From a virus: a stretch of 64,000 nucleotides of DNA. Shown here in pieces: positions 8,954 through 59,470 of the stretch (position 1 is its first letter; each line of letters opens with the position of its first letter). Made by a program: the position numbers and the translations under genes. Under the pieces are notes generated by a model that was given only the letters and a program-made list of their open reading frames with translations, ran no database searches and had not been told where the DNA came from. The stretch lies in the IMG/VR virus record IMGVR_UViG_3300032401_000010. One strand, given 5' to 3'.

Positions 8954-10165
8954 TCAAATAGTTTCTTCTAGCTCAGACTGTATTTCTTTTAAAGTTGGAT
9001 CAACCGTCAAACATAATTGCAACATGGTTTTAGCTGCGTTTGCTGGAATTTTCCCAGCAACATTAAGATCGCCTAATGCAAACGTTTTTAAATCCGGAGT
9101 CTTATTCCTTTTTAATGCAAATAAAGCTCCAGGCCATAATTTTGTCATAGCCTCTAAAGCAAAATCTTTCATTATCAAATGATGTTTAAGGCTATCATAA
9201 TCAATTTGAGTACGACGAAAAACTTCAGCAATTATTGGTTTTAAACGCCTTATTCTATTTGCTATCATCTCAGGCATCATACCAATAATATCATCATCTT
9301 TTTCTAATAAGATAACCTCCACGCACCCTCTGTAGGAAGTAGATAAGCTGTCACGCATATGATTATATATGACATACAACGGACTCTTTACTTTAACTCT
9401 ATTGAAGTTGGCGTCCTTAATAACAACGCCTTCTTTTTCTTTTGGATCCCAGTCTTTTACGACTTGGATCATATGATTTATATTTTTAAAATGATATTTT
9501 TCTACCGCAGGAACCTTTAAATTTGCCGCCAAAACTTCTGGCGAATACTCAGTTAAAGTTTTGTTATCACGGACTGCTAATAATGTTATAGATAATTTCT
9601 TGTAATCACAAACTATTCTATTAAAAGGACTTGTTAATTCAAAACAGTATGTGCAATTCTTGTCTATCTGCAACATCCCTTGGTTTCCATAGTTCATTAA
9701 ATCTTGAATATCATTTCCAAGATTCATTTCTTTTACTGCTAAATCAAATAATTTAGCAAAGGTTATGTCGCTTTCATCTATATTGCCATCAGCCTCCGGC
9801 CTAGAACGAGTTCCTACACACCACCTATCTTGTTCAAGATCCCAGTAAGCAATGCACATCGTTCCGTCTAATTTGTCTTCAAAACAAGCTGTGCTCCAAT
9901 CTATCTCGGCTGCTGTTTCTTTTTGTTCTAGATTGAAAAATCTAAACATTGGACAAGCAACTATATCATACGTTCCTTCTCTTAGGATTAATCCTCTGCA
10001 TTGTTGCGAAAGCGGATCTTGCTCTCTTGCTTCAATTTGATCATATGTTAACCCTATTTTCCCATTATGAATATAAGATTTAACTCCATGTTCTATTTTT
10101 AGATCTTGAAGAGTTTTTCCGGAACGCAAATATTTTTGAACGTGTAGCATTATGTCAAATACCAA
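8954..10165 (-). CDS. RNA ligase 1 (T4 RnlA-like)
   Basis: Segments align by eye to T4 Rnl1: CRGLILREGTYDIVACPMFRFFNLEQ matches CRGIMFEMDG..RPMEKFFNLNE; the adenylyltransferase KxDG motif I is FEDKLDGTM (T4: LTKEDGSL); EGVVIKD...FNRVKVKSPLYV matches the T4 motif IV/V region. Confidence 0.75.
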   Translation of the reverse strand: MVFDIMLHVQKYLRSGKTLQDLKIEHGVKSYIHNGKIGLTYDQIEAREQDPLSQQCRGLILREGTYDIVACPMFRFFNLEQKETAAEIDWSTACFEDKLDGTMCIAYWDLEQDRWCVGTRSRPEADGNIDESDITFAKLFDLAVKEMNLGNDIQDLMNYGNQGMLQIDKNCTYCFELTSPFNRIVCDYKKLSITLLAVRDNKTLTEYSPEVLAANLKVPAVEKYHFKNINHMIQVVKDWDPKEKEGVVIKDANFNRVKVKSPLYVIYNHMRDSLSTSYRGCVEVILLEKDDDIIGMMPEMIANRIRRLKPIIAEVFRRTQIDYDSLKHHLIMKDFALEAMTKLWPGALFALKRNKTPDLKTFALGDLNVAGKIPANAAKTMLQLCLTVDPTLKEIQSELEETI

Positions 10166-13325: not shown

Positions 13326-14375
13326 TCATTTTGTCAAAAAACCTTCGCCATGAAGTTTTAATATTACTCGCCCAAGTTTATCATGTCTGCGCTCAAACAC
13401 AGGGCGAATAACCACGCCTTCTCGAACGTGTTTGTTATCTAATGTTGAACTGCCTTCAGCAAGCTCATAAGCTTTCTCTTTATTCCATGGCCCCATATAA
13501 AGAACAGGAGCTATAGGCAAATCAAGAGCGTTAGTTATAGAAATAAACTCATCAAAATCTACATACCTCCGAAGATTACGATCATATATATCAAATAATC
13601 TAAGACCAGCCTCACCGCGCTTGACACTATATGGAAAACCTCCGGTGTAACCACATGTCTCACCATAGATAACAATTTTTCTATTGTTAGCCGCCTGCCA
13701 TGACGCAAGCTTATTTTCTAAATTATAAAGCTCAGCGGCCTTGCCCCAGCCACCAATACCACTTTTCTTTACATTAGTTCTAGAACCAATCCATAAACGA
13801 TTATCTTCATAACAAAATCTTGCGTTTTCTCCATGAATCTTTTCGACCATAATTACTTCTTCGCCATCAACAAAAATATTTTTCCAGCGCCTTAATCCTT
13901 CAACATCAGTATACGTAGGCATGTAATGATAATCAGGCTCATTCAGTCTTGTGTCGCCAAAGTTATATCCCTCATCTGGTGGCGGCTCATATTTATCAAT
14001 ACCTAACTTTTCCCTAACGTCTTCGCCTTCAACCATGCCTTCGTCAGCATGAATAAGTAAACCCATGCTAAATACACCACGAAGGCGCCTAGCTTTAATC
14101 CTGCGATACTTTGCTGGTACTTGACCAATGGGAGGCGTAGGCTCTTTTATATTTCCTTCCTTGTCCTTTTTCGGAGGAGGAGCAAGGAAGTAGAATTTTT
14201 CATTATCTGGACATAAACTATCTACCGGAATATAAACAACTAAATCTCCAGGCTTAAATTCTCCAAGTCTAACGATAGCAGGATAGTCCGCTACCTTAGT
14301 AATACCTAAGGTGTCGGCATCGGGATGTTTCGTAATTTCCCCAATACGAACAACTTCTATATGAAATTCGGTCAT
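13326..14375 (-). CDS. RNA ligase with N-terminal tRNA-binding OB (Myf/EMAP-like) domain
   Basis: N-terminus IGEITKHPDADTLGITKV resembles the HP(D/N)ADKL tRNA-binding OB fold. The nucleotidyltransferase motif I is MVEKIHGENARFCY (KxHG(E/T)N, as in Rnl2, DraRnl and NgrRnl). Confidence 0.6.
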   Translation of the reverse strand: MTEFHIEVVRIGEITKHPDADTLGITKVADYPAIVRLGEFKPGDLVVYIPVDSLCPDNEKFYFLAPPPKKDKEGNIKEPTPPIGQVPAKYRRIKARRLRGVFSMGLLIHADEGMVEGEDVREKLGIDKYEPPPDEGYNFGDTRLNEPDYHYMPTYTDVEGLRRWKNIFVDGEEVIMVEKIHGENARFCYEDNRLWIGSRTNVKKSGIGGWGKAAELYNLENKLASWQAANNRKIVIYGETCGYTGGFPYSVKRGEAGLRLFDIYDRNLRRYVDFDEFISITNALDLPIAPVLYMGPWNKEKAYELAEGSSTLDNKHVREGVVIRPVFERRHDKLGRVILKLHGEGFLTK

Positions 14376-15846: not shown

Positions 15847-16671
15847 TTAGTAAGCAACATTTAACTCTGGCTTCTTTGCTGTGCCTTGAACACGAATTAA
15901 TCTACCAAGACTTCCATCCTCTTCAAAGACTTGAGCCGTTAGAATACCAGTATCATACACAGCCGAGTCTAAATTGCAAGAAAATTTATAGAATTTCGCC
16001 TCGCCGTCTTTTTGAGCGGCATGACCAGAAGCAATATATCCAAAACGACCATCATATTTTTGATGCCACGAATCTCCGCCCTCTTTAGATTTAACTAAAG
16101 TGGATACTCCATTGATATCTTTCCAGATAAGAGGAATCATTCTACCATCTTCATCAACGTCTCTTACATAAACTACCTCAATATCTTTCTTGATATCGCC
16201 CCAGGTATGATGCGGAGTGACGCCAGCATGAACCACGGTAAGACGGGATCCGCTTTCAAACTGAAATGATAAAGCCAAAGGCTGGCGCCTCCACCAAATC
16301 AAAGCCTCACTCGGATCTTTCTTTGACTTCCGAATATGCTTAATTTCATGGTTGCCAGGGACGGCCCAGCCAACGCCACGCTTACGCAGAGTCATAAGCT
16401 CTTGCGTCATAGCCTCGGCTGTTTTCATACCAAAGCCTTTATCATATATGTCCCCTACTGATACAACCCACATTTTTCTGGAAGGATCAATCTCATTCAT
16501 CATCTTTTGAAATTGTTCTGGGTGCTCATGCACGTCTCCAAATACGGCAATTTTAGTGCCGTATGGAACTTCAATGTTGAGGTAATCCTCTGCTTTTGTT
16601 TCTGTTTTGCTCATTTTATTTCCTTCTTTTATGGTTATTTTTGTATAATGTTGATGAAAAAAATAGCTCAA
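15847..16671 (-). CDS. calcineurin-like metallophosphoesterase (lambda-phosphatase/PrpA-like); candidate RNA end-healing phosphatase
   Basis: Motifs VFGDVHEHPEQF (GDxHG-like), GDIYDKG (GDxxDRG) and GNHE. Confidence 0.7.
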   Translation of the reverse strand: MSYFFHQHYTKITIKEGNKMSKTETKAEDYLNIEVPYGTKIAVFGDVHEHPEQFQKMMNEIDPSRKMWVVSVGDIYDKGFGMKTAEAMTQELMTLRKRGVGWAVPGNHEIKHIRKSKKDPSEALIWWRRQPLALSFQFESGSRLTVVHAGVTPHHTWGDIKKDIEVVYVRDVDEDGRMIPLIWKDINGVSTLVKSKEGGDSWHQKYDGRFGYIASGHAAQKDGEAKFYKFSCNLDSAVYDTGILTAQVFEEDGSLGRLIRVQGTAKKPELNVAY

Positions 16672-21854: not shown

Positions 21855-22598
21855 TCAAATTTTTAGTATATGTGGTTTGCCGTCATGACCAATAGCAGCG
21901 TTACTAAAGGTTGTGCTACCTATGGAAAGCACACCATTACTAGGGTGAGCATGACCACACAGATACAATTTGAGTGGATTAGTAAGTTGATATGTTATAG
22001 TAGAGTTAATAAATGGATTGCCGATATGCTGTTCTTTTTTGGCATCATATGTATCAAGAATTCCATCTGGTGGACAATGTGCCACGAGAATATCAAGTCT
22101 ATCAAACATTTTAGCATCCTTAAGTCTTCGCAGAAATGTATTTACTTCTTTGCGAAGTTCATCAGGAGTACATTCAAAATTCCAGCAGTTTCGAATTTTC
22201 GGAACATATGGAAATCCGTACCATACGAAACCTTTATATTCAACTACTTTATTATCTAAATCAATAGCTTCTATCCCATTGTCATTCAAAATCTGACATG
22301 GATTTAGAAAATCATGATTGCCGGAACTCCAAATGAACGGCTTGCCTTTTATCCATTCTTTAATTGCTTTTATATTTGTGAGAAGCCATATCTTTTGGAA
22401 TTCTATCTCAGCTTTTCTTTTAGCGGCGGTTCGATTTGGTTCTAGCTCAATGCCGCGTTTTCCAAATGATTCACTTTTGTTATAAGCAAAAAAGTCTCCA
22501 GAACACACAACTACATCAAACTCCCCTGGGAGATCTATTAGCTGTCCATGGCAATCTGAAATGTGACATATAAGCATAATGTTATTGTAATCATTCAA
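21855..22598 (-). CDS. calcineurin-like metallophosphoesterase (second copy)
   Basis: Motifs ICHISDCHGQ, GDFF, GNHDF and GHAHP. The track starts it at a TTG codon that sits inside a 20-bp tandem repeat. Confidence 0.65.
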   Translation of the reverse strand: MNDYNNIMLICHISDCHGQLIDLPGEFDVVVCSGDFFAYNKSESFGKRGIELEPNRTAAKRKAEIEFQKIWLLTNIKAIKEWIKGKPFIWSSGNHDFLNPCQILNDNGIEAIDLDNKVVEYKGFVWYGFPYVPKIRNCWNFECTPDELRKEVNTFLRRLKDAKMFDRLDILVAHCPPDGILDTYDAKKEQHIGNPFINSTITYQLTNPLKLYLCGHAHPSNGVLSIGSTTFSNAAIGHDGKPHILKI

Positions 22599-24167: not shown

Positions 24168-24986
24168 TTATTCTTTTACAATCAAATCTCTGTTAACTCT
24201 AAATACATCATGCCCTGCATGAAGTATATTTAGAATAAAATTTCTATCAGCAACAAAATTTGGAATATTCATATCGATAATCCATTTGTTACGAGCAACC
24301 TCTCCCTCCTCCGTTCTTAGAATAACAGGAACTTTGTAAGCCGCTGTTCCTAAACGAAATGAATTTGGATAGAATGTTTCATATTCAATATCACATTTGG
24401 TTCTCAAAAGATCTATTTTTTCAGCAGATTTTTTTTCATGCAACATGCCCAAGGTTTGTTTCTTGCCATAAATTTTAGATAGTTCGGATTGTGCCGCCCC
24501 TGTTATTGCGTTTGTAGAACAATCTTGTTGTCGAAATATAAGGTTATTTGCAGCTTCAGTAATTGATGGGACAGCAAAAACTCTAGCATCAAAAATAGCG
24601 TCACCAACTATTTTTGGCGAATTTTCCATTGTGAATAAATTTTTAGCAAATGATAATGTTGTTATACTGGATACAATAGAAACTATTTTTTGTATTCTAT
24701 TTTGAAACCAAGGCTCGGATTCTAAAGACTGATCGTTTCTTATTACAAAAGTTATTTCATCACTTTGGTGATAAGCAAAAATGGCGCCTTCAATTTCCAT
24801 GGCGGCATGAAGCATTGTATTAGCCATAAGACTTAACATCTCATGACAATATGGACGTGGTAAATGTTTTGTTACCCTGCTAAAATTTTTGCCATCAACT
24901 CTTATTATTAATGGCAAACGTTTTATAATTTTATAATCATATGACTGTTCATACAATTTTTGTCTATCAGATAAAGATTCTTGCAT
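24168..24986 (-). CDS. Thg1-like protein (tRNA-His guanylyltransferase family 3'-5' nucleotidyltransferase)
   Basis: Aligns by eye to Thg1: IIRVDGKNFSRVTKHL matches VVRLDGRNFHRFAEKH; FAYHQSDEITFVI matches IAYGQSDEYSFVF; FRQQDCSTNAI matches WRQADCHINNL. Confidence 0.7.
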   Translation of the reverse strand: MQESLSDRQKLYEQSYDYKIIKRLPLIIRVDGKNFSRVTKHLPRPYCHEMLSLMANTMLHAAMEIEGAIFAYHQSDEITFVIRNDQSLESEPWFQNRIQKIVSIVSSITTLSFAKNLFTMENSPKIVGDAIFDARVFAVPSITEAANNLIFRQQDCSTNAITGAAQSELSKIYGKKQTLGMLHEKKSAEKIDLLRTKCDIEYETFYPNSFRLGTAAYKVPVILRTEEGEVARNKWIIDMNIPNFVADRNFILNILHAGHDVFRVNRDLIVKE

Positions 24987-26037: not shown

Positions 26038-27936
26038 TTAAATCATGCCCAGAAATTGTTGCTCAGAAATAAGGGTTGTTCCAAACTTTCTTGCCGCATC
26101 AGCTTTCGAAGAAGTGCTATTGGGATCGGCAATTACAAGATAATGCAATCCTTTGCCTACACTCTTTTTTACTGAACCACCAGCATCTTCAACCATTTTC
26201 TGAAGCGCTGGCCTTGGCTTTTCCATTGAACCAGTAAAACAAAAACTTTTCCCGGTAAGCTTGCCCTTGACTCGCGGTTTAATAGTAACGCCCGCAGCCA
26301 AGATATCTTCTATGCGCTTCTTATTCGTTTTAAGACCGTTTACGAGAGCCTTGGCCCGAATGCTGCCAAAGCCGCCGAGGCTCGCCAAACGGCCCTCAGT
26401 AAGCACTAGCATGGCATCCAGAGTATCATAGCCAGCCTCAACAACAACCTTGGTGGTTGAAGTGCCTACACCATTAATTCCTAGCCCGCCGATTAAGTTC
26501 TCAAGCGAAATTTTTCGATGCCCATTAAGAACATCAATTAGCTTTTGTGCAGAACGTTCTCCCATTCTGTCAAGCTTCTCAAGCTGTACTGCTGTCAACC
26601 TATATAGATCGCCAACATCTTTGACAAGTCCGGCATCAATAGTCTTTTGAAGAATACTCTCGCCCCACTCAAGAATATTCTGTTCGTTGATCCATGTCTT
26701 GAGCCTTCCAATTACTTGGGCTGGACAAGTTTCTTTATTTGTACAACGAAGATATTCTCCATTAAACTCAGTTGGAGAATTACACTCAGGACACTTCTTC
26801 GGCGGCTTATGAACAGAGTCGGTGCCTTTAATAAGTTCTTCAACCCTTGGAATTACATCATTGGCTCGAATGATCAATACTTCAGAACCAACATCAATAC
26901 CAAGTTCTTTAACATAAGAATAATTATAGCAACTAGCTCGCTTAACCTTTGCTCCAAGCAAGTTCACTTCATCGAACTCTGCTACTGGAGTAATAGTCCC
27001 AGTGTTACCAACTTGATCTACGAACCTAATAATCTTTGATGTTGCACTTGGAGCTTCAAACTTAAAAGCGATAGCTCCCTTTGGACGATGATTTTTATCG
27101 CCCAAAGCAAATTGGACAGACATATTATCAACGCGAATAACTACACCGTCGATATCATAATCAAGCGAGTCACGAATTGAACTTTGATATTTATTATATT
27201 GACTAATAACTTCTCGCACTTCTCTATAAACGGCAGAAACAGGAACGTTAAAACCAGTTTTGTTCAGCCATTTAAATTGTTCGCCCTCAGTGTCGAAATC
27301 TTTACCGTTAACAGTATACATCATAACGGTAAGATGCTCAACGCCAATTCCATCAAGTCTTTTTGCTATACCAGATGCTGCATTTCTAGGATTAGCATAC
27401 TCGGGAAAATATTTCTTATTGTCAGACTTCAATAGAATAATTTCACCGCGCACACTTCCTGTAAAGGATTCATTAAGCTTTTGTGGAATGCCTTTCATTC
27501 TAGCAACGTTAGCAGTAATATCCTCGCCTATGTTACCGTCACCACGAGTAACTGCCTGAACGAGCTTTCCTTTTTCCCAAATGGTATTAATTGAAATACC
27601 ATCCAGCTTTTCAGTAAAGAAAATGCCGGAATTTAAATTACGAGAACTTAGGCCTGTACCAGAAGGTGACTGCTGCTCACACTCCTTGGCCCAGGCTTTA
27701 AATTCGTCCTCTGTATTAACTTTATTAAGCGAACCCATTGGAACAGAATGAGAAGCCTTCTTCCATTCAGAAACAACAGGAGCGCCAACGGATGTTACAG
27801 CTGTGTGGTTCGGATCAAGTTTCGAAAGCTCATCAACCCAAGCATCAAAGATAGCATCCGAAACTGTTGGCCCGACATTGTAGTAGTCATGGCGAGCTTT
27901 AACAATTTTATATGCTAGCTCTTTGATTTTAGACAC
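26038..27936 (-). CDS. ligA: NAD+-dependent DNA ligase (LigA)
   Basis: Ia domain at the N-terminus (YKIVKARHDYYNVGPTVSDAIFDAWVDEL), adenylation motif KLDGISI, Cys4 Zn finger (CPECNSP...C...CPAQ), HhH region and a C-terminal BRCT-like tail. Confidence 0.85.
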   Translation of the reverse strand: MSKIKELAYKIVKARHDYYNVGPTVSDAIFDAWVDELSKLDPNHTAVTSVGAPVVSEWKKASHSVPMGSLNKVNTEDEFKAWAKECEQQSPSGTGLSSRNLNSGIFFTEKLDGISINTIWEKGKLVQAVTRGDGNIGEDITANVARMKGIPQKLNESFTGSVRGEIILLKSDNKKYFPEYANPRNAASGIAKRLDGIGVEHLTVMMYTVNGKDFDTEGEQFKWLNKTGFNVPVSAVYREVREVISQYNKYQSSIRDSLDYDIDGVVIRVDNMSVQFALGDKNHRPKGAIAFKFEAPSATSKIIRFVDQVGNTGTITPVAEFDEVNLLGAKVKRASCYNYSYVKELGIDVGSEVLIIRANDVIPRVEELIKGTDSVHKPPKKCPECNSPTEFNGEYLRCTNKETCPAQVIGRLKTWINEQNILEWGESILQKTIDAGLVKDVGDLYRLTAVQLEKLDRMGERSAQKLIDVLNGHRKISLENLIGGLGINGVGTSTTKVVVEAGYDTLDAMLVLTEGRLASLGGFGSIRAKALVNGLKTNKKRIEDILAAGVTIKPRVKGKLTGKSFCFTGSMEKPRPALQKMVEDAGGSVKKSVGKGLHYLVIADPNSTSSKADAARKFGTTLISEQQFLGMI

Positions 27937-33126: not shown

Positions 33127-34816
33127 AAGAAGTTAGAGCATCATGGTATTCATCGCGCTCTCTTAATATTTTTTGCGCTTTTGCCAGACCTCCATTGTCT
33201 GGAAGCAAAGCTCTCTTAGGATTTGGCAAGATCATCGCTAAGTAAAACGCTTGTTCCTCGGTTAATTGACTTACTTGGCAATGAAAATAATGATCGGCGG
33301 CTCTCTCAATTCCGTATACATCACTTCCGAATTCGATTACATTTAAATATAGCTCAAGAATTTGTTCCTTGGTCAAACATTTTTCGAGAGGTATCGTTAA
33401 AAATATCTCATGTATTTTTCTGAGCAGAGTTTTTTCTCTGGTGAGCCACAAATTTTTTGCTAACTGCATTGTAATTGTGGATCCGCCGCGCATAAAACGA
33501 CCCAATTGTAAATTAGCAATGAGCGAATTTTGAATTGCTGAATCCAAAACTCCATTGTGTTTATAAAATCCTCGGTCTTCTAATGTAACAAATGCATTAG
33601 TTACATAAATCGGAATGTATTGTAATGGCAACCAACCTGTTCCAGCTGGATTAGCATCATTTCCTTTGATAATTAATCTTTGGTTGCGATTGCCTTTAGA
33701 GTCATAGGCCATATAGCTTACAACATTTTCTTGCAAGAACAACCCGTTACAAGTTTCCCAAGAACATTTATATCTTGGAGGCATTGTAATCGGAGGTTTA
33801 GAACAAGCGTAGTCACATTTGTTCTTCAAAGTAAATATAGGTTTTGGTTTTATTTGAATCTCAAATGATAAATCACCAGAGTAATTTCCAATCGTTTGCT
33901 TTAAAGCGTCCGGTAAAGGCTCTGGTAATATGGATACCCATGTGTTGCAACTTTGGGTTCCGCTTACATGATAGTTAGTTAAATCGATATCAAGATGAAC
34001 ATAATCTTCTGACCAACCTAATACAGCATCAATTTTATTTAATGATTTAATAAATGTGACAGCAACATTTTTGAATATCACCGACTCAGTAGAGATCCAC
34101 GGATGATTTATCGTTAAAAATTCTGATTCAAATGATATGTCAGAGCCATTTTTAACTGCTGTAATGTTTTTAAATTCAGCTGGTCCTAATTTAATGTTGC
34201 CAGCTTTAATTAATTCTGATTCCTTGTGTGCATAAAAATTATTAATAGTTATCTTTTGATAGCTATCTATCTTCGGAAGTTTGAAAGGAATAGTAATATC
34301 TGTTTCTAATTTTGAAATTCTAATAGATTTATCATCCTTAATTATATTTCCATCGAATGCTAAAATATGTTTGCCGTGGTATATAATATCTGCGTCATCA
34401 AAATGAGCAATGCCATTTAAATATGAAACGTTATGAAGAGTAGCTTTGTCATCTCCTTTTATAATGTATACTTGAAAATTAGATACAGTTATATTATTTA
34501 GAATGGACGCCTGAGTTGTTCCACTTTTTGTTTCACCTGGGTTGATGAACAAATTAACTCTGCCATCTATTATGGAAATTGGATTATAAAAACTGATAAT
34601 AACATTAATTGCTTTGGCATTAATGTTATTACGTTTAATATCTACATTTTTAGCAGCCAAGCAAATTAATAAGCCTGGATCATAACAATTTGTTGTATAT
34701 TTTATTTCTCCGATTGATACTTTATATTTGTTCTCAATATATTTTTTGGCAAGCGATGGAGCAGCGGCTATTAAACCGGCCGTCACCAAAATACTTATTA
34801 TGAATTTCTTATTCAT
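33107..34816 (-). CDS. secreted protein with C-terminal peptidoglycan glycosyltransferase (GT51, PBP transglycosylase-like) domain
   Basis: Signal peptide MNKKFIISILVTAGLIAAAPSLA. GT51 motifs EDRGFYKHNGV (EDxxFxxHxG) and RGGSTITMQLAKN (GGSTITQQ). Confidence 0.6.
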   Translation of the reverse strand: MNKKFIISILVTAGLIAAAPSLAKKYIENKYKVSIGEIKYTTNCYDPGLLICLAAKNVDIKRNNINAKAINVIISFYNPISIIDGRVNLFINPGETKSGTTQASILNNITVSNFQVYIIKGDDKATLHNVSYLNGIAHFDDADIIYHGKHILAFDGNIIKDDKSIRISKLETDITIPFKLPKIDSYQKITINNFYAHKESELIKAGNIKLGPAEFKNITAVKNGSDISFESEFLTINHPWISTESVIFKNVAVTFIKSLNKIDAVLGWSEDYVHLDIDLTNYHVSGTQSCNTWVSILPEPLPDALKQTIGNYSGDLSFEIQIKPKPIFTLKNKCDYACSKPPITMPPRYKCSWETCNGLFLQENVVSYMAYDSKGNRNQRLIIKGNDANPAGTGWLPLQYIPIYVTNAFVTLEDRGFYKHNGVLDSAIQNSLIANLQLGRFMRGGSTITMQLAKNLWLTREKTLLRKIHEIFLTIPLEKCLTKEQILELYLNVIEFGSDVYGIERAADHYFHCQVSQLTEEQAFYLAMILPNPKRALLPDNGGLAKAQKILRERDEYHDALTSFEDENE

Positions 34817-36734
34817 TAGGCATCAATTCTTTTAGCTCTTCAATTAGTCCGCTAGAAAGAACAGGCCAGCGGCACCAAGTCTTTGGGTCAAGATTCTCGT
34901 CATCATAATGAAAACTTACAGCATATCGTTCGCGCTTCCATTGGTTTCTACACCACAAAGTAAAGAACTTTATAATCCATTTCCTAGCTTGCTCCTCAGT
35001 CATATCACCTGACTGCATAAGTAATTGAAAAATTTCTACCGGAGATCTCTTATCTCTAATAGAAAGCTTTTCAATCTTATCCAAAACAGGATATGGCATC
35101 AAATCATCTTCATCAGACTGTTTCTTATCTGCTGGACGAAGCTCTGCCGTTGGAACAAGCTCCTTAACAACGGACTTTAATCCAGGCCACTTTCTTTCAT
35201 TTATATATCCTCGCTCGCCTCGTTCGTAAACATAAGATAACCATTCAAGAATGAACGCTTTATCAATACCAGCGATAGGGCTTAGACCACCGCAAGTATC
35301 CCCATCCATCGTAGCATACCCTACAGCCGCTTCGCTTCTGTTGCTTGTGGATATTAGGAGTGAGCCATTGATATTAGCAAGCATCCAAATGCCAGGAGCC
35401 CTTGCCCGAGCCTGAATATTTTGCAAAGCAATATCATTTTCTTCCCAATTCAATTGTTTACCAGTAGCAAATTCAATCTTGTCAGTATAAGATTTAATTA
35501 CATCATCAACCGACCAGTTAATAAAATTGGCCTCAATACTTTCTGCTAAGCTCTTTGCGCTATGGAAAGTATCTACCCCGCTATTCTTTGTCCCTTGATA
35601 TACGCAAGTTAGCATCTTATTGAATTGCACTTTATGCAAATCGTTTTCTGCTAACTTATCATACATCATTCGAATAAGAACTGCGCAAGCCGAAGAATCA
35701 GCACCTCCACTTAATGATAACATGAAGCCACTCGAATGTGACTTCCTCATATAATCCCACAAGCCAAGAGTTGCGGCTTTAGCAAACTCTTCGTGCTTAG
35801 AAAAGCTTTGATTCAATATTTTATTACCAACTGCTTGCTTTACACTCCAATGTTCCTTAAATCCATTTACACTTGCTACTACGCACCCATCACTAAAGAC
35901 CGGTTTGAAACTGGCAAGCTTTGTTTGTAGAACCCTTGTTTTATCTATGTCAACTACTGCTGCGCACAAGGTGTAGTTTTTGAAAGAAAACCTTTCTCCG
36001 CATGCAACAATTTCTCCGGCAGAACCAATAATAGTATCACCTTCGTATATTGCTCTTCCTGCTTCGTTACCAAGCAGGTTTGAATATACATATGTTACAT
36101 TTTGAGAACGCGAGCCTTCAAGTACGAATCGCTTTCGAATCTCATGCTTTCCAAATGCAAAGTGAGATGCGCTGGGGTTTAAAATGATATCAGCGCCACG
36201 TCTTGATAGATCAATACCTGGACGATCTACGACCCAAGCATCCTCGCATATTTCGAATCCAACAAATATTCCGCCAATATTAAATATCAAATCACCAATA
36301 GGCGGAGCACCAGTAGTAGAATCTAATATCTGACCTTTTGGCCAAGGTTTAAACCATCTTGGCTCATAATGAATTCCATCGCCAGCAAGATGTTGCTTTG
36401 GAACGATGCCGAGAATCTGACCACGATGAACAAGTGCTACACAATTATAAAGGGCATTCCCTATATTTAATGGGAAGCCGATAGAGAATATTACATCAAG
36501 ATTTTTTGTTTGATTAACAATATCTGTTAAAACAGCCTGGGCCGTGTCCTGAACGAACGGGGCTTGAAAGGCGTCTTCGCAACCGTATCCAGTAATGCAA
36601 AGCTCTGGCAAACATAGTAAACGAACGTACTCCCTTTCTGCCTCGTTGATAACAGCCAGAATATTCTTTTGGTTGCCAGCCCAATCAAGAGGGGTTTGAT
36701 TCAAAGCCGCAGCAGCAACCCTAATCCTTTTCAT
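34809..36734 (-). CDS. nadE: glutamine-dependent NAD+ synthetase (NadE with N-terminal nitrilase/CN-hydrolase domain)
   Basis: CN-hydrolase start (RVAAAALNQTPLDWAGNQKNI ... catalytic Cys in FEICED) and the NAD-synthetase PP-loop SLSGGADSS. Confidence 0.8.
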   Translation of the reverse strand: MKRIRVAAAALNQTPLDWAGNQKNILAVINEAEREYVRLLCLPELCITGYGCEDAFQAPFVQDTAQAVLTDIVNQTKNLDVIFSIGFPLNIGNALYNCVALVHRGQILGIVPKQHLAGDGIHYEPRWFKPWPKGQILDSTTGAPPIGDLIFNIGGIFVGFEICEDAWVVDRPGIDLSRRGADIILNPSASHFAFGKHEIRKRFVLEGSRSQNVTYVYSNLLGNEAGRAIYEGDTIIGSAGEIVACGERFSFKNYTLCAAVVDIDKTRVLQTKLASFKPVFSDGCVVASVNGFKEHWSVKQAVGNKILNQSFSKHEEFAKAATLGLWDYMRKSHSSGFMLSLSGGADSSACAVLIRMMYDKLAENDLHKVQFNKMLTCVYQGTKNSGVDTFHSAKSLAESIEANFINWSVDDVIKSYTDKIEFATGKQLNWEENDIALQNIQARARAPGIWMLANINGSLLISTSNRSEAAVGYATMDGDTCGGLSPIAGIDKAFILEWLSYVYERGERGYINERKWPGLKSVVKELVPTAELRPADKKQSDEDDLMPYPVLDKIEKLSIRDKRSPVEIFQLLMQSGDMTEEQARKWIIKFFTLWCRNQWKRERYAVSFHYDDENLDPKTWCRWPVLSSGLIEELKELMPNE

Positions 36735-43686: not shown

Positions 43687-44349
43687 TCAAGTCCCTAAAG
43701 CCAGTTTATTGCGCACTATCTCTTTAGATCTCCAATGATCATCCGTTTGCACATGATTTTTTCTTACCAACTTACTAACACTTGAGGCGAACGCAGAATC
43801 TTCAAATCCATAAACTAAACGAACTACAACGCCCTCTCTTTCCGGACCATAAAAAGAAGGCTGTTTCATAAATGATTCGGTAATTCTTTGTAGTTCTTTT
43901 TCCGTTTTAACTGTAATGTTAGCCAATTCTGGAACAGTATATAAGCCAAGTTTATTCGCCGTTTCTTTTACACCGTTCCAGCCTAACCAATAATGAATAT
44001 TTGGTTCAGTATTTATTATTCTTACTCCGAACATAAGAAAATAAGCAGGAAGTTTATCGTAAAAAATCGAATGTTTAGCTGCTACCCATTCTCCGAAAAT
44101 TTGCATATTTATTGGTATATTATGTTTTATAGAAGTATGCAAAGTTTTAAATTCATTAAAGGAAGGATGATTTGGTGGTCCCGAATGAGTACGAGCATAA
44201 CAACTATCATGCTGTAAACATACGTTACTTCCGTCTATTTTTTCTAATAGAACAAGTTCATGTCCCAAAAATGAATCTACAGATGATAAAATTTTGTCAT
44301 CTGATGTTCCGCTACTCCAAGGTAAATGAAAAGTTCTGGGATATTTCAT
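43687..44349 (-). CDS. RNA ligase-family nucleotidyltransferase (small Rnl2-like, KxDG)
   Basis: N-terminal MKYPRTFHLPWS and motif I LLEKIDGSNVCL. Confidence 0.55.
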   Translation of the reverse strand: MKYPRTFHLPWSSGTSDDKILSSVDSFLGHELVLLEKIDGSNVCLQHDSCYARTHSGPPNHPSFNEFKTLHTSIKHNIPINMQIFGEWVAAKHSIFYDKLPAYFLMFGVRIINTEPNIHYWLGWNGVKETANKLGLYTVPELANITVKTEKELQRITESFMKQPSFYGPEREGVVVRLVYGFEDSAFASSVSKLVRKNHVQTDDHWRSKEIVRNKLALGT

Positions 44350-48327: not shown

Positions 48328-48543
48328 AACAATGTCAATATATTCACTAAGTCAAAAACTAGGAAAAATTAATTTGGCTGGCACTTCAGGTACATAATCT
48401 GTTGGGAGCACACCGGTACCGTCGCATACGCCACAAGTTTCGCATGGATGACAGTCGCCAACATGCCAGCCACGCCCTTTGCACTAATGACACCGTACCT
48501 TATTTGCTTGATCCTTATGCTCGTCCATCACACATTCTCCGTG

Positions 48544-48635
48544 TCTCAAGTTCTGGAGTTGAACCAGAATCTCCCGGCCTATGGTCCGTACCGAAGTGCG
48601 TAGCACCGGAGTTCTACCGATTGAACTAACTTGAG
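48544..48635 (-). ncRNA. tRNA-like structured RNA (canonical acceptor, D and T arms; non-canonical anticodon/variable region)
   Basis: Minus strand: CTCAAGT-TA-GTTC-AATCGGTA-GAAC ... TCTGG-TTCAACT-CCAGA-ACTTGAG-A. The 41-nt central segment has no clean 5-bp/7-nt anticodon arm. Locally GC-rich and free of ORFs. Confidence 0.4.
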
Positions 48636-48712
48636 GGGTTTGAATCACCTCTATTATGGATCTTCTGGCCGAGGATTAAGTTTCGATATTAACATCTAAC
48701 TTTAGTTAACTA

Positions 48713-48919
48713 TTATTTGGCAGCCTTGTTCCTCTTTTTTAGGTAAGGAGCATGACCCTCCGCTGGCTTCCGAGCTTCCTTCTTACCCTTAAGCCACGCC
48801 TTGACCTTATCGGTCTCATCATGCTGTTTAGCCCACTGTTTTAGAGAAAACCTCTCAGCGGGCTTGCCAGCAAGATACTTTTTGTACGTAGCCCTAAGAT
48901 TGTTAGCAATAATACTCAT
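48713..48919 (-). CDS. hypothetical small basic protein
   Basis: 68-aa Lys-rich ORF. Confidence 0.35.
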   Translation of the reverse strand: MSIIANNLRATYKKYLAGKPAERFSLKQWAKQHDETDKVKAWLKGKKEARKPAEGHAPYLKKRNKAAK

Positions 48920-48975
48920 TTGTTTTCTATTTAACTCCGGTTATCTCAAGTTTGGTATCTGATAGTTCTGGCTCT

Positions 48976-51255
48976 TCAAACATTAGGGTTTTTATTTTTT
49001 AATTGTTCTAAAAACGATTCTGCATTGGCATAAGTCTTAACAGCCGTATCAATTTCATTACGAATAGCTATATTCTCAAGATGAATAGTAATTGATGTGT
49101 CTATATCCTGTGGTGATACCGATATAAACTTATCCAATTTGGACTTGAATTTTGCTCGTTGTTCGGTGGTTAATTTATTAATCTCAAATTTATGATCTTT
49201 ATTTAACCATTTAACAAGTTTTTCCGCCTCGGCCTGATTGTTGTTTACAAACCAAGTCATTTTCTCGCGCCAAATATGATCTGCTACCTTGCGAATCACA
49301 TCTCCGGTAGCGCCTTCTAACCTTTGTGCAAGAGCAGACCAAACATTGTTATTAAGTTCCGATGAAGTTGGGATATAATCAGTAAAGTTTTTTAACAACT
49401 GTATACGATGATCGTTAGTTAATTTTCCGCAAATAATTACTTTTGAAAATCTTCGTAACATAGCGATTGGAATGTTTTGAGGAGTATTCGTTGCTCCCCA
49501 AACACTCAAACTTGGATAATGAACAACGCCATCCATCAATGTTTGAAACTCAAGCGTAAGATTCGAATCTCCATTACGAGATAGCTCTGGCTTCCTTAAC
49601 ACAGAATCAATCTCATCAATCAAGATATGAACATGCTTACCGCTATTTTTATGAAGCTTCAAAGCGCATTCAAATAAACGCTTAGGGTTTTTCTCCATCT
49701 CACCTTTCCAACAAGTATTGAAGTCGGAACCCTGTGCATAAACACCAATGGATTTTTTATCTCCGGCAACAGAGCGCAGAATTTCTGACTTCCCGCATCC
49801 TTGCGGACCTACAAGCAGAACGTTGGATTTGTCTGCCGTCTTGCTTGGACTTGTTGCAATAAACAAATCATGCCACTTAGACGATGATTCAATTTCATTA
49901 ATAAAACTTTTGACATCATCAAAACCGCTTCCAATAATATCATCAAGCAAAATGTTGGGACGCTCACTAGGAATAATTGTTAGTGCGCCAGGAGCTTCGC
50001 CAGAGAATGGGTTACCAGCGCCAATCTTACAAACATAGAAGCTGTTCTCATCCTGATAATAGGCTTTAAGCTCCTTCTTCCTCTTCAGAACGAACTGAAT
50101 CAACTCGCTAACTTTGTTGGTATCAAAACCATTACTAAGCATTTCAGTTATTGTTTTGATTGTTTCGTTCCTGAAGTTTTGTTCAAACCTCTCTTCACTA
50201 GATAGAAGTTTGGTGTTAGGCTTATAAACGATGTTCATCGGATTAACATCTTCAAGCCTATCTACAATAGAATTAAATTCCGATTCAGAAATTGGATTAC
50301 GATAAGAACGATTGCTTTTCTTGGCGTTCGTTAATTCCTTTACCTTAACAATTTCGTTTTCAAACATTCCAGTTAATACAGAAGACATGTTCCAGAATGA
50401 ATGCAAACTGCTGGATATAAAGCTCATAAAGAACCCAGGCGTAGTAATAAATGATTTTGCCGCACCTCCGCTAATAGCTTCGCCGATAACCTGTGCCTTA
50501 CGAACAGAATAAGCCGAAACCTCATCCGGGTTTTTTCCCGCCTCAATTTCACCATGAGCATCTATATTTTCATAGATAGCCATAGCAACATCTGTGACAA
50601 TGGGATCCTTAAAAATTTCCATACCACCGCTGGAATGGCGGTTCAAAAGAGAACGATAATAATCTTCAAGAAGCCAACTTATATCTCTTTGTGCTAATTT
50701 ATATGTAAGCTCAGTAAGTTGTTCAAGATTCATAACGGCATTAGAGAATCTATTAATACAAGAACTATTAATCTGGTTCTCAACTTGAAAAGACATTAAT
50801 CGCTGAAGATCGTTGCCTTTGCCGTCAAATCTTTCATCGGAAATCATAATAGGCTGTGGAATTAAATCCTCTGCCGTACTAATAATAGCTCTGAAGAAAC
50901 TTTGGTACCTTACAGTAATTTCAAAAGCAACGCGCAAGAAGTTGTTTGCGCTAAGATTATGTCTATAATTGCTAAAATCATTCTCCATATCCTCAAGATC
51001 TTCCAACGGATTTCGCATGCGAGTAGTGGCGCGAATCTCCTGAAGCATTGCGTTATTGGACCTAGCAAGAGATTCGGCCTCAGCATCCATAATAGAGGAC
51101 GCATCCCTCATCTTTGATATGGCTTCGGTCAACATCATTAACTTATTGTTATCGATGGATCGCATTAAATCAATCAATCCATAAAAACGAGCCGGATTAA
51201 TATCCGCTGCGGAAGGGATCTTCACATCGACATTGAACATATTGGATTTAGACAT
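48976..51255 (-). CDS. large protein with C-terminal AAA+ ATPase domain
   Basis: Walker A LLVGPQGCGKSE and Walker B HILIDEIDS in the C-terminal third; N-terminal 450 aa unassigned. Confidence 0.6.
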   Translation of the reverse strand: MSKSNMFNVDVKIPSAADINPARFYGLIDLMRSIDNNKLMMLTEAISKMRDASSIMDAEAESLARSNNAMLQEIRATTRMRNPLEDLEDMENDFSNYRHNLSANNFLRVAFEITVRYQSFFRAIISTAEDLIPQPIMISDERFDGKGNDLQRLMSFQVENQINSSCINRFSNAVMNLEQLTELTYKLAQRDISWLLEDYYRSLLNRHSSGGMEIFKDPIVTDVAMAIYENIDAHGEIEAGKNPDEVSAYSVRKAQVIGEAISGGAAKSFITTPGFFMSFISSSLHSFWNMSSVLTGMFENEIVKVKELTNAKKSNRSYRNPISESEFNSIVDRLEDVNPMNIVYKPNTKLLSSEERFEQNFRNETIKTITEMLSNGFDTNKVSELIQFVLKRKKELKAYYQDENSFYVCKIGAGNPFSGEAPGALTIIPSERPNILLDDIIGSGFDDVKSFINEIESSSKWHDLFIATSPSKTADKSNVLLVGPQGCGKSEILRSVAGDKKSIGVYAQGSDFNTCWKGEMEKNPKRLFECALKLHKNSGKHVHILIDEIDSVLRKPELSRNGDSNLTLEFQTLMDGVVHYPSLSVWGATNTPQNIPIAMLRRFSKVIICGKLTNDHRIQLLKNFTDYIPTSSELNNNVWSALAQRLEGATGDVIRKVADHIWREKMTWFVNNNQAEAEKLVKWLNKDHKFEINKLTTEQRAKFKSKLDKFISVSPQDIDTSITIHLENIAIRNEIDTAVKTYANAESFLEQLKNKNPNV

Positions 51256-54674: not shown

Positions 54675-55075
54675 TTTACCTCAGCAATACTGTGTTCAGC
54701 TTTTTTTACGGCATCAGTTACCGCATTGATAGAATTTATTAGCTTTTCTTCCTCTTCGGACAATATTGGGACAATGAATCCATTAGGAAGCTCACCAGTT
54801 TGAAATTGACGTGGGATCTTAGCAGCATAAGAGCTGCCAATACCTGGAAAGAACACAATAATTTTTTCTGCTCTACCATTTTCGAATTCTTCTTTGAACT
54901 TTGAAAGCCTCTCCATTACCCTTTCATAACTCTCTTTGTCCATAGTGACCCCAAGAGAATCCGGCGGAATAGGTTCTGGCTCACCGACAATCGCTAGACG
55001 AACCGGCTGTCCACCAATAATGAACCGATATACAGTTCCTTCTTCTGTTGTGTTTAGCTTTGACATTATTCCCAA
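54671..55075 (-). CDS. hypothetical protein
   Basis: 134-aa ORF. Confidence 0.4.
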   Translation of the reverse strand: MGIMSKLNTTEEGTVYRFIIGGQPVRLAIVGEPEPIPPDSLGVTMDKESYERVMERLSKFKEEFENGRAEKIIVFFPGIGSSYAAKIPRQFQTGELPNGFIVPILSEEEEKLINSINAVTDAVKKAEHSIAEVK

Positions 55076-55719
55076 TAGTCTTTCCAGTTATCTTTAAACT
55101 GAGTTTGCAGTTTGTTCATATAGGCATTAGTTTTTATCTTGCACATATAAACTTTATCATCAACTACACCTTTGCAAACTACTCCTTCATTAACCGAATA
55201 CTTTCCGTTCCTTACATCTTCTGAAAATTGTCCAGAGTATTTTCCTTTATAAATTACTTTGGCAATATCAAAATCTTTAAAGTCATCCAAGAATTGTTGA
55301 GGTGGAATTATTTTTCTATCAGTCATTACATCTATTAAAGTTAATTTTTTAATATCTTTAGGATCATGTTGGCCAGCAAAAGAATTTGGGCCGTGATATT
55401 CCATAAAAATAATTACTTCATTATAAATATTATAGTTTGTGTTTTCGCAAACGAAATCTAATATTTTATCTGAAATATTTTCAATAAGCTTTAAAGTTTT
55501 GTCGTCGCCTAATTCTGGATGACATTTAAAGAATTCATTGATACCAACATTATTAAGCGGAAATCTATCACGGCGCGTTCCGAAATCTATCCAGCCCCAT
55601 TTCTTATTCCATACGACATGAATATTTGTTCCGTCATATTTCTCAAAAGCTATGCAGTTGTTAAGCAAACATTTTTCGCTATTTGGAATCTTTGAATAAG
55701 CTAAATGAATTTTAGACAT
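55066..55719 (-). CDS. RNA ligase-family nucleotidyltransferase (small, KxDG)
   Basis: Motif I AFEKYDGTNIHVVW; size matches a stand-alone adenylyltransferase domain. Confidence 0.5.
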   Translation of the reverse strand: MSKIHLAYSKIPNSEKCLLNNCIAFEKYDGTNIHVVWNKKWGWIDFGTRRDRFPLNNVGINEFFKCHPELGDDKTLKLIENISDKILDFVCENTNYNIYNEVIIFMEYHGPNSFAGQHDPKDIKKLTLIDVMTDRKIIPPQQFLDDFKDFDIAKVIYKGKYSGQFSEDVRNGKYSVNEGVVCKGVVDDKVYMCKIKTNAYMNKLQTQFKDNWKDYWE

Positions 55720-57934: not shown

Positions 57935-58143
57935 TATTTGTTAAACCATACAACATGAGTATATGTTTGATCTATGTTTGGTAGATCTATTTGTTCGTCA
58001 GTCATCTCTGACGATGTAGCATAATAGCCATTGCCATCATAACCATTATAACTACCAGATCGCACTGCTTTAGAAAACTCTTCCAAGGTCATGTGTTCCC
58101 CGTAATCAGGTATTGGTTCCATCCGTCTCGGCTTACTGAGCAA
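57934..58143 (-). CDS. hypothetical small protein
   Basis: 69-aa ORF. Confidence 0.3.
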   Translation of the reverse strand: MLSKPRRMEPIPDYGEHMTLEEFSKAVRSGSYNGYDGNGYYATSSEMTDEQIDLPNIDQTYTHVVWFNK

Positions 58144-59470
58144 TCGATTTAACCTTTTCCTGATACCATTTCCTAGCAGCTTCCATAACTGGCCTATTTA
58201 CTTTAGCCCAGTCAAGATTAGAAGCTTCAAGTTCAGCTCCGCTTTCCTTCTGCACGTCAGCCGTAATCCACTTTAAGAAGGCGCCTGTGAGCTTGGCATC
58301 ATACTGTCCGTTACATGCCGTAGTAACTGCCTGCTCAAGCCTTGCAGGAGTAACGAACATATCTACGAATTCATTAACGCTAGCAGCTACTTCAGGATCA
58401 ATCTGAACTGCCGCCTTCTGCTTGACTACCTTATGCTGTTCTCCTTTAGCTTTAAAAAACAGATCGTAATAATCAGAACGCATTATTACATTTGTATCAT
58501 CTTTTTTCAAAGGATATAAAACAATGCCTTCCCCGATCCCCTCTACATGGAAAACAGATTTAACCCAAGGATCACAAGCCTCAACTTTAGCCACCATCTC
58601 ATTTAGATTCTCGGCAGCCTTGCGCAACTGTTCAGTGTCTGCGAAATCTAAAACAATTTCTTCACCATACCAAGGAAGAACATATAGGTCAAGGTTAGGC
58701 AGAGAGGTGTGATCAATTAATAAATCAGCGATTGTTTTTGGCTCAGCATAATACCTGGACGTATTATCAGAGTTACCACATTGAATTGCAAACACTGCTA
58801 GAATCTTCTTGCCAATATTATTGATAGCTGTACCCTGTTGTATTGATTCTCCGCACCATTCTCCAAATACAGTTACTATTTCGTCCTTAACCATTTTCTT
58901 GAAGAAAGCCGTATTATTATCCACCCATTTAGCAAACCCAGCATTATCATTCTCTGGAGTAATAATACTGGTTCTGCTCTGAGCAAATACTTTCCCGTCA
59001 GGATGGATCTGAACAGCAGCATTCGTTCCATGCAATTTAATCTTAGCTTTGTATGTAACCGAAGGAAGTTTGTAAGACTCGCCAAGATTAGAACGAAGAT
59101 CCCCTAATCCTTTACGAACCCCAACTAACCCTTCAATCTGTGGCCAATAATGCATGCTAGCGCCAGAAGTATTCAAATCTTCTTTACAATACTCAGCAGT
59201 AACATCTGTACCAACGTCAGCTTCAGATTTACCTAATGCCATACCATACGAATGAAGTCCGCGAACCTTGGTAGAAGAAATTTTGGTTCCGTCCTTAAGT
59301 GTAGAACCACTAAGAACTATAACAACCTTATCATCAACTTCATAGATGTTCTCAAGGTTGGCTACGATTTGATTTGTTTCAAAACCTTCTGCTTCCATTT
59401 CGTATAAACGCAAAGCGTCTGCAAAAGGATGTTTCTCGGCCTTGATTACTTTCATTACTACAGCGGTCAT
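58133..59470 (-). CDS. RNA ligase with N-terminal tRNA-binding OB domain (NgrRnl/DraRnl-like)
   Basis: N-terminus VIKAEKHPFADALRLYE (tRNA-binding OB signature) and motif I KIKLHGTNAAV (KxHGTN). Confidence 0.65.
   Translation of the reverse strand: MTAVVMKVIKAEKHPFADALRLYEMEAEGFETNQIVANLENIYEVDDKVVIVLSGSTLKDGTKISSTKVRGLHSYGMALGKSEADVGTDVTAEYCKEDLNTSGASMHYWPQIEGLVGVRKGLGDLRSNLGESYKLPSVTYKAKIKLHGTNAAVQIHPDGKVFAQSRTSIITPENDNAGFAKWVDNNTAFFKKMVKDEIVTVFGEWCGESIQQGTAINNIGKKILAVFAIQCGNSDNTSRYYAEPKTIADLLIDHTSLPNLDLYVLPWYGEEIVLDFADTEQLRKAAENLNEMVAKVEACDPWVKSVFHVEGIGEGIVLYPLKKDDTNVIMRSDYYDLFFKAKGEQHKVVKQKAAVQIDPEVAASVNEFVDMFVTPARLEQAVTTACNGQYDAKLTGAFLKWITADVQKESGAELEASNLDWAKVNRPVMEAARKWYQEKVKSIAQ

Follow-up and report, generated by a model that had tools for sequence, protein, structure and literature searches.

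Can a tRNA gene with perfect acceptor, D and T arms still decode when its centre offers no recognizable anticodon arm, or has such a gene become something else? The question is raised by a 92-nucleotide (nt) element on the minus strand of a 64,000-nt stretch of viral DNA (IMG/VR record IMGVR_UViG_3300032401_000010), the whole of which we call the window. Our data show that the element is a genuine tRNA-derived gene, far beyond chance. On balance, we think it probably does not decode, and is a disabled or exapted copy of a tRNA gene residing in a hypervariable slot of the phage genome.

The body of the element

The element and the arms of its body are as follows.

48544..48635, minus strand: whole tRNA-derived gene, 92 nt including the discriminator A73 at 48544 (sequence, ARAGORN, Rfam RF00005)
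48629..48635, minus strand: 5' strand of the acceptor stem, CTCAAGT, positions 1-7, pairing with 48545-48551 (ARAGORN, inverted repeat I9)
48611..48626, minus strand: D arm, GTTC-AATCGGTA-GAAC, four Watson-Crick pairs and an 8-nt loop (sequence, Rfam, ARAGORN)
48552..48568, minus strand: T arm, TCTGG-TTCAACT-CCAGA (sequence, Rfam, ARAGORN)
48545..48551, minus strand: acceptor stem's 3' strand, ACTTGAG, standard positions 66-72 (sequence, ARAGORN, inverted repeat)

In the three stems of the body (acceptor, D and T), 16 of 16 pairs are Watson-Crick, and the bases for the tertiary contacts are present (U8, A14, G18G19, A21, U54-U55-C56, A58 and G53-C61). The D loop carries A14, A15, G18G19, U20 and A21. 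TA joins the 5' strand of the acceptor stem to the D arm, and a single T at position 26 stands between the D arm and a 41-nt centre, CCGGTGCTACGCACTTCGGTACGGACCATAGGCCGGGAGAT, which runs up to the T arm. The discriminator is followed by CAC; the gene does not encode CCA. ARAGORN reports a 93-nt tRNA at 48543-48635, one base more than our boundary at 48544, and the Rfam tRNA model RF00005 matches the element with 47.1 bits (E = 3.8e-9 in a 401-nt region), above its gathering score of 29 and with the three arms expected of the family, a match that is obtained only by skipping the anticodon domain. When the full 64 kb is searched, the filters of cmscan lose the element at gathering and permissive E-value settings alike. 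A preliminary description of this DNA had reported the 7-base-pair (bp) acceptor stem, the D arm and the T arm, and sequence, ARAGORN and Rfam all bear it out.

Competing folds of the anticodon region

The centre can be divided into three parts.

48591..48609, minus strand: hairpin located where the anticodon arm would be, CCGGUGCUACGCACUUCGG, spanning element positions 27-45 (constrained folding, ARAGORN drawing)
48575..48588, minus strand: predicted extra hairpin, CGGACC-AUA-GGCCG, positions 48-61, five pairs and a bulged A (pair probabilities)
48569..48574, minus strand: G62, then GAGAU, which looks like a normal variable loop of 5 nt at standard positions 44-48 (sequence, Rfam alignment)

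No register of the centre forms a 5-bp stem with a 7-nt loop that has U33 and a purine at position 37. All the registers that we checked fail the rules for the stem or the loop, and the statement in the preliminary description that there is no canonical anticodon arm therefore holds. We compared the available folds by constrained folding with the three body helices fixed, recording energies and pair probabilities. The constrained minimum, at -27.5 kcal/mol, places at the anticodon position a hairpin of 7 pairs with a bulge (C27-G45, C28-G44, G29-C43, a UU bulge, G30-C40, U31-A39, G32-C38 and C33-G37), in which the last two pairs shut U34-A35-C36 into a triloop. A second hairpin follows (C48-G61, G49-C60, G50-C59, a bulged A51, C52-G58 and C53-G57, with the loop AUA), and then G62 and GAGAU. 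The inner pairs of the first hairpin have probabilities of 0.77-0.81 (0.81 for 33-37) and those of the second hairpin 0.62-0.68. By the standard tertiary rules for tRNA, G46 should be able to contact C13-G22, and U48 to pair with A15.

Two other folds have to be considered, as ARAGORN and Rfam place the anticodon arm differently. The decoding-competent register of the ARAGORN type reaches -23.5 kcal/mol, about 4 kcal/mol worse than the minimum, and G32-C40, which the Arg loop requires, has a pair probability of 0.001. In the Rfam alignment CCGG at 27-30 pairs with CCGG at 59-62, so that the latter is read as the 3' strand of the anticodon stem; this is achieved by a local-end skip that leaves 28 nt against 9 in the consensus, and GAGAU is taken as an ordinary 5-nt variable loop. 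Such a CCGG/CCGG stem with a large internal domain ranges from -22.5 to about -26 kcal/mol, its stem has a pair probability of 0.19, its loop is 26 nt long, and every possible 7-nt product of this register has G32 and C33. Compared with dinucleotide shuffles, the central region shows no excess stability (z from -0.45 to +0.73). Thus the extended helices that had been attributed to the centre are indeed predicted, but they are no more stable than those of shuffled sequence. The type-II-like layout that had been proposed is the lowest-energy cloverleaf and has structural precedents, including those of PMC5389517, but the element does not have the marks of the class II tRNAs for Leu, Ser and Tyr. 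A 5-pair arm is predicted, but no Leu, Ser or Tyr anticodon is available; six unpaired nt follow the predicted extra arm, and the D stem has 4 bp.

Genomic context and search for relatives

The window is densely packed, with nearly all genes on the minus strand and a GC content of about 37%. The element lies on the gene strand between a 68-aa open reading frame (ORF) and a zinc-finger ORF, and we found no promoter-like or terminator-like site specific to it. Its slot (48328-48975) is bounded upstream by the gene of a 759-aa AAA ATPase (48976-51255) and downstream by a conserved 306-aa gene. Hundreds of relatives of the AAA ATPase lie on contigs of 230-500 kb, which places it in a huge-phage lineage. 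We compared the slot with L001 12667-14165, L006 13109-13915 and L105 700-1790, and its gene content differs from lineage to lineage. Relatives whose AAA proteins are 82%, 84% and 71% identical carry other small genes there and no tRNA; a SpoU-type RNA methylase occupies the slot in two relatives, and near the 306-aa gene just the last ~13 codons of the preceding gene are conserved. The tRNA-like gene thus belongs to the accessory genes of this one phage species and occupies a cassette slot that is hypervariable. The AAA ATPase orthologs P0005, P0028 and others are about 1000-1170 aa long and contain inteins (PF14890 or Hint/LAGLIDADG); the copy in the window has no intein.

The gene immediately downstream shows a peculiarity of its own.

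48352-48528, minus strand: small zinc-finger ORF of 58 codons, 15 nt downstream of the element, with three DnaJ-type CxxCxGxG motifs

Codon 15 of this ORF (48484-48486), inside the first CxxCxGxG motif, is an in-frame amber TAG in the window. Among the nine strain contigs that cover it, five have TAG, three TAT (Tyr) and one CAG (Gln), and TAG alone of these alleles is one step from each of the others; two of just three single-nucleotide polymorphism (SNP) positions in 680 nt fall in this codon. Homologs of the ORF in unrelated temperate phages have Glu at the same position. A polymorphic amber codon in the neighbouring gene is compatible with relaxed selection on the cassette.

Our searches for relatives of the element itself returned none. 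Exact and degenerate DNA patterns found no homolog in IMG/VR, and broader patterns run over IMG/VR, JGI metagenomes and GTDB genomes retrieved long tRNAs of other kinds, or ordinary tRNAs for Trp, Gln and Pro in which the D arm is the same. In GenBank phages BLAST gave no homolog, nor did synteny followed through the AAA gene, the 306-aa gene and the zinc-finger ORF. A profile scan of IMG/VR with the AAA gene led to 17 huge-phage loci with 39 tRNAs and two transfer-messenger RNAs (tmRNAs), none of which is related to the element. A covariance model of the element found no homolog in the 603 kb of loci that we fetched, which include those 17 related huge phages; its top match other than itself, at 48.8 bits, is in L075. 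The same model gives a 29-bit tRNA-like match at L104 13162-13233 that ARAGORN does not call. The protein cluster of a spurious ORF that reads through the tRNA holds no variation in the tRNA-encoded part. As there are no homologs there is no covariation, which is the main limit on all our conclusions, and without a relative in the collections searched the element is a curiosity and not a demonstrated new system.

A probably non-decoding RNA

How would such a gene behave in the infected cell? The lack of its own promoter-like or terminator-like site, together with its position between ORFs, suggests that the element would be transcribed along with its neighbours. As its scaffold of acceptor, D and T arms is intact, the RNA would probably be released from the transcript by RNase P and the enzymes of the 3' end and would receive CCA, as any tRNA does. 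The mature RNA would then present in its 41-nt centre no anticodon, only the bulged hairpin with its UAC triloop, the second small hairpin and the 5-nt variable loop. Instead of a working tRNA for Arg or Val, it would be a tRNA-like RNA that does not decode, or else a relic.

Several observations favour this inability to decode, which we infer. The body is canonical, while every register of the centre breaks near-universal rules for the anticodon arm. The closed two-hairpin form is favoured over the decoding register (-27.5 against -23.5 kcal/mol). Position 20 of the D loop, AAUCGGUA, is U, whereas, of the 12 Arg tRNAs that the fetched loci contain, 11 have A20; the relatives have no tRNA in the slot, and no homologs were found. 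We also count as a precedent the irregular tRNAs that are seemingly unused in translation (PMC5389517). Between a disabled and an exapted copy we lean towards the former, given the orphan status of the element, its variable slot and its amber-interrupted neighbour. Even as a merely disabled copy the element carries a warning for annotation, as ARAGORN labels it tRNA-Arg(ACG) and the default filters of Rfam miss it.

Three points have to be set against a disabled, non-decoding copy. First, the body is free of defects and the departures are confined to the anticodon domain, which suggests that selection keeps the scaffold, if several independent mutations are involved. Second, RNAfold closes the loops of genuine tRNAs too, for example that of the Arg(CCU) tRNA of L088, and the predicted triloop is thus no proof that the element is unable to decode. 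Third, working-looking tRNAs with odd extra arms occur in phages of the same clade; the related huge phage L088 encodes an 82-nt tRNA-Arg(CCU) with a 13-nt extra arm (9830-9911). The element has no SNP in its 92 nt among 10 near-identical strain contigs, which is uninformative, as only about 0.4 would be expected.

If several independent mutations did alter the anticodon domain, the spotless scaffold favours a functional mimic over a relic, and this explanation stays a serious rival even though we rate it as unlikely. It overlaps with the non-decoding part of the reading that we prefer but claims a selected function. Proteins that recognise tRNAs would bind the RNA through its intact L-shaped body, and the closed anticodon domain would let it act as a sponge or decoy for tRNA-targeting nucleases of the host, or else serve the phage's own tRNA-repair enzymes as partner or substrate. 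The tRNA-repair enzymology that the preliminary description saw in the window is real and unusually dense, judging by domain matches of the window's ORFs, and includes five proteins of RNA-ligase families; its link to the element is conjectural.

8954-10165: Rnl1-like ligase
13326-14375: PF09414 ligase
43687-44349: PF09414 ligase
55066-55719: PF09414 ligase, weak match
58133-59470: ligase fused to a Trbp111-type tRNA-binding domain
24168-24986: Thg1-like 3'-5' polymerase
15847-16671 and 21855-22598: two metallophosphoesterases
34809-36734: NAD synthase
26038-27936: NAD-dependent DNA ligase

NUDIX and isochorismatase-like proteins are likewise encoded in the window. The ligases, the Thg1-like enzyme, the two metallophosphoesterases and the NAD-metabolism genes would all suit a mimic, as would a pristine body whose alteration is confined to the anticodon domain. 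Phage tRNAs are known to counter anticodon nucleases (PMC10264068, PMC11464382), and other viral tRNA-like genes combine intact acceptors with closed or rod-like anticodon arms (L019/L023, L027, L060). The intactness of such odd tRNAs is partly an effect of the search, however, as they were retrieved by a pattern that demands intact D and T arms. No ortholog of the element was found, so neither conservation nor covariation is seen; the nearest relatives lack the gene although RNA-ligase genes are common to them, and the centre is structured no more than shuffled sequence.

A possible irregular decoder

A second rival, which we regard as rather unlikely, is that the element does decode, as a class-II-like tRNA for Arg(ACG), with a 6-layer stem and the loop CUACGCA, or for Val(UAC); its odd loop might then be an adaptation that escapes anticodon nucleases. 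ARAGORN labels it tRNA-Arg(ACG) in normal and intron modes. The stem that it draws (C28-G44, G29-C43, G30.U42, a U31xU41 mismatch and G32-C40) leaves two bases between the D and anticodon stems, or becomes a 6-layer stem if C27-G45 is added, and is followed by a variable region of 23 nt, drawn unpaired. The loop has C32, U33 and A38 and matches the Arg(ACG) loops CUACGAA/CUACGGA at six of seven positions, but has a pyrimidine, C37, where a purine belongs. A20 in the D loop is the major identity element for arginyl-tRNA synthetase in bacteria, and it is absent here. With no A20, and with a U.U mismatch, a G.U pair and C37 in place of a regular stem-loop with a purine at 37, the element lacks the marks of tRNA-Arg(ACG), and the conventional cloverleaf that would have spoken against the preliminary description is returned by ARAGORN in name only.

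The valine register has attractions of its own. Counted from the 5' side in standard numbering, UAC stands at exactly 34-36, and the stem CCGGU/ACCGG together with UAC is identical to that of the Val(UAC) tRNA of the related huge phage L092 (CCGGU-UUUACAC-ACCGG). A73 and a GGUA D loop fit Val, and U directly after G18G19, as in the element, occurs in 6 of the 11 Val tRNAs of the fetched loci. Compared with the L092 tRNA, however, positions 32/38 and 33/37 are now G-C and C-G, and the register comes with C33, a Watson-Crick 32-38 pair and a 2-nt UU bulge. A bacterial Arg(ACG) tRNA, that of L084 (CCGGU-CUACGAA-ACCGG), fits about equally well, given a 1-nt insertion. The anticodon arm looks derived from a CCGGU...ACCGG arm such as those of phage Val(UAC) and bacterial Arg(ACG). 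The identity elements of the gene (U20 and A73) lean away from Arg, but its ancestry, Val or Arg, is ambiguous.

Decoding would also be in keeping with the extra-armed Arg(CCU) of the related phage, and with an Ile(UAU) class of equal length, described below, in which an arm, an extra hairpin and a 5-6-nt tail are supported by covariation. The window makes good use of CGT/CGC/CGA and GTA codons, but also of ACA and ATA, and codon usage cannot separate the candidates. The decoding register, moreover, is the one that lies about 4 kcal/mol above the closed form, with negligible pair probability.

Improbable readings: a locked anticodon and a spliced precursor

We find it improbable, and clearly more so than either of the rivals above, that the phage deliberately makes a tRNA-shaped RNA with a locked anticodon that acts together with the repair gene set, as a decoy for host anticodon nucleases or as a pro-tRNA. 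The consequences would be considerable: a pro-tRNA that becomes functional after being cut and resealed by phage ligases would amount to protein-mediated tRNA splicing in a bacterial virus, and L019/L023, L027, L060 and L024 would belong to an unrecognised class.

Very improbable is a class-I pre-tRNA with an intervening sequence of ~19-21 nt, which an endonuclease would cut and a phage RNA ligase reseal, leaving an anticodon such as CAU, UAU, UAC or CUA. Rfam does align the CCGG/CCGG stem, with 28 nt in place of 9 and a proper variable loop GAGAU behind it, but a local-end skip is no positive model of an intron, and the low pair probability of that stem speaks against it. We took a canonical bulge-helix-bulge to be two 3-nt bulges around a 4-bp helix whose excision yields a canonical anticodon loop; enumeration finds none at the anticodon position, and the intron mode of ARAGORN finds no intron. 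A relaxed motif can be drawn (G29-C53, G30-C52, U31-A51, with the bulges CUA and AUA and an inner helix with a UUCG loop), but it contains a G.G mismatch and an outer helix of 2 bp, and its product is a 4-bp stem with G33. In 450 trials of single deletions (10-29 nt) the product reads as Met, Ile, Val, Arg or undefined depending only on the cut site, and G32 and C33 are retained in every class-I product. RNA ligases are plentiful nearby, but a scan of 50 ORFs of the window, many of them without a Pfam match, revealed no tRNA-intron-endonuclease domain, and the host markers are bacterial. A canonical 18-nt intron does exist in a tRNA from a viral contig: L020 10900-10990, on an AT-rich IMG/VR contig, is a tRNA-Tyr(GUA) whose intron lies at the canonical 37/38 position (ARAGORN intron mode).

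Other origins of the extra sequence can be dismissed. With only ~19 extra nt as against at least 200, and Rfam matching nothing but tRNA, the centre is not a group I intron. It is not a repeat or miniature inverted-repeat transposable element either, as its 26-nt core does not recur in the window with up to three mismatches allowed, and there are no local repeats; a 15-mer of the core matches in IMG/VR by chance, within coding sequence only. A tandem duplication in the centre (26-40 against 41-52), judged by eye, does not help, as dropping either copy restores no 7-nt loop.

The suggestion of a suppressor-like tRNA, made in the preliminary description, fails as well. None of CUA, UCA and UUA is central in any 7-nt loop of the element; CUA occurs once, at positions 33-35, one position off register. 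TAG terminates at least nine long ORFs in the window, and among the stops that separate same-frame open stretches it is unenriched (TAA 4, TAG 2, TGA 2). We therefore reject amber suppression and TAG recoding. The huge-phage relatives L088, L092, L093 and L094 do carry UCA/UUA/CUA suppressor-type tRNAs and their own tmRNAs less than 10 kb from the AAA gene (L088 20129-20202, 20744-20818 and 21454-21856; L092 3874-4271; L093 13132-13205; L094 18065-18140).

Relationship to known irregular tRNAs

The element is best described as a variant within a loose category of irregular tRNA or tRNA-like genes. Irregular tRNAs with an extra arm or loop comprise allo-tRNAs, E-loop tRNAs and polycistronic irregular tRNAs (Mukai et al. 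2017, PMC5389517; PMC7609411). Those with an irregular variable arm occur in metagenomes, Acidobacteria and phages, and several are suspected to be inactive or non-translational (PMC5389517). Like the element, they add an arm or loop to a tRNA scaffold and have a longer or irregular anticodon stem; their anticodons are at odds with their structural class. What defines an allo-tRNA is an acceptor/T configuration of 8/4 or 9/3 together with a tRNA-Sec-like D arm (PMC5389517), and allo-tRNA(UAU) forms are seemingly unused in translation (PMC5389517; PMC7609411). The element, in contrast, has a 7/5 configuration, a standard D arm with a 4-bp stem and an 8-nt loop, and no clean 7-nt anticodon loop, and the first two of these features exclude it from the allo-tRNAs.

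Nematode nev-tRNAs, which are also irregular extra-arm tRNAs (PMC4300185), combine a class-I-type anticodon with a long extra arm and are correctly processed with no detectable effect on decoding. Unlike the element, they are eukaryotic and conserved in nematodes, their anticodon loops are canonical, and leucyl-tRNA synthetase charges them in vitro. Phage tRNAs whose anticodon loop is altered withstand the anticodon nucleases of the host (PMC10264068; PMC11555353), and T5 tRNA-Lys acts in the conflict with PARIS (PMC11464382). The element resembles these in an anticodon loop that departs from the host norm and in a genome invested in tRNA-cleavage conflict, but theirs are point substitutions in the canonical 7-nt loops of decoding tRNAs, whereas here the arm is remodelled and 19 nt are added. 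With intron-containing tRNAs, whether of the archaeal and eukaryal bulge-helix-bulge kind or with bacterial group I introns (PMC4090602, PMC13011429), the element shares extra sequence in the anticodon region of an otherwise normal gene, but it has no bulge-helix-bulge at the canonical position and is too short for group I.

Should the element prove functional, the few tRNA-shaped RNAs known to have jobs other than decoding would gain a phage example. Its genome, which encodes five RNA-ligase-family proteins and a Thg1-like enzyme, is one in which the cleavage and repair of tRNA is clearly a major battleground. Over-long tRNAs with extra arms recur in viral contigs, which speaks for a broader population of irregular phage tRNAs that are hard to annotate. 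Viral and metagenomic tRNA-like genes at L019/L023, L027, L025, L024, L060 and L057 have intact D and T arms and mostly intact acceptors, and their centres look non-decoding, each in an idiosyncratic manner (6-bp stems with 2-6-nt loops and a second hairpin, or rods of 10-12 bp).

Among these extra-arm tRNAs is a 7/5 class of tRNA(UAU), 92-93 nt long, found on viral contigs (L021 5009-5099, L028, L022 1793-1885 and L026 4940-5032) and in a metagenome-assembled genome of Pyrinomonadaceae (Acidobacteria; L075 3359-3450). Its members have a perfect 5-bp/7-nt anticodon arm with the loop YYUAUAC, followed by an extra hairpin (4-bp/7-nt) and then a tail of 5-6 nt. Across four sequences the extra arm shows 100% pairing, two of its pairs having exchanged both partners (stems GCGC/GCGU, GCGG/CCGC and GCAC/GUGC), and its loops (CAGAUUA, CUGAUUA and UAGAUAG) contain GAU in a near-copy of the anticodon loop of tRNA-Ile(GAU). 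The class may be related, in a 7/5 frame, to the phenomena of allo-tRNA(UAU) and nev-tRNA-Ile(UAU). The element has the same D arm and length as this class and the same order of parts, namely an anticodon arm and then, after 2-4 nt, a hairpin of 14-15 nt followed by a tail of 5-6 nt that ends in U48; it differs in its irregular anticodon arm and in an extra arm of unrelated sequence that lacks covariation support. These extra-arm tRNAs, including the covariation-supported tRNA(UAU) class, may be a more useful observation than the element itself.

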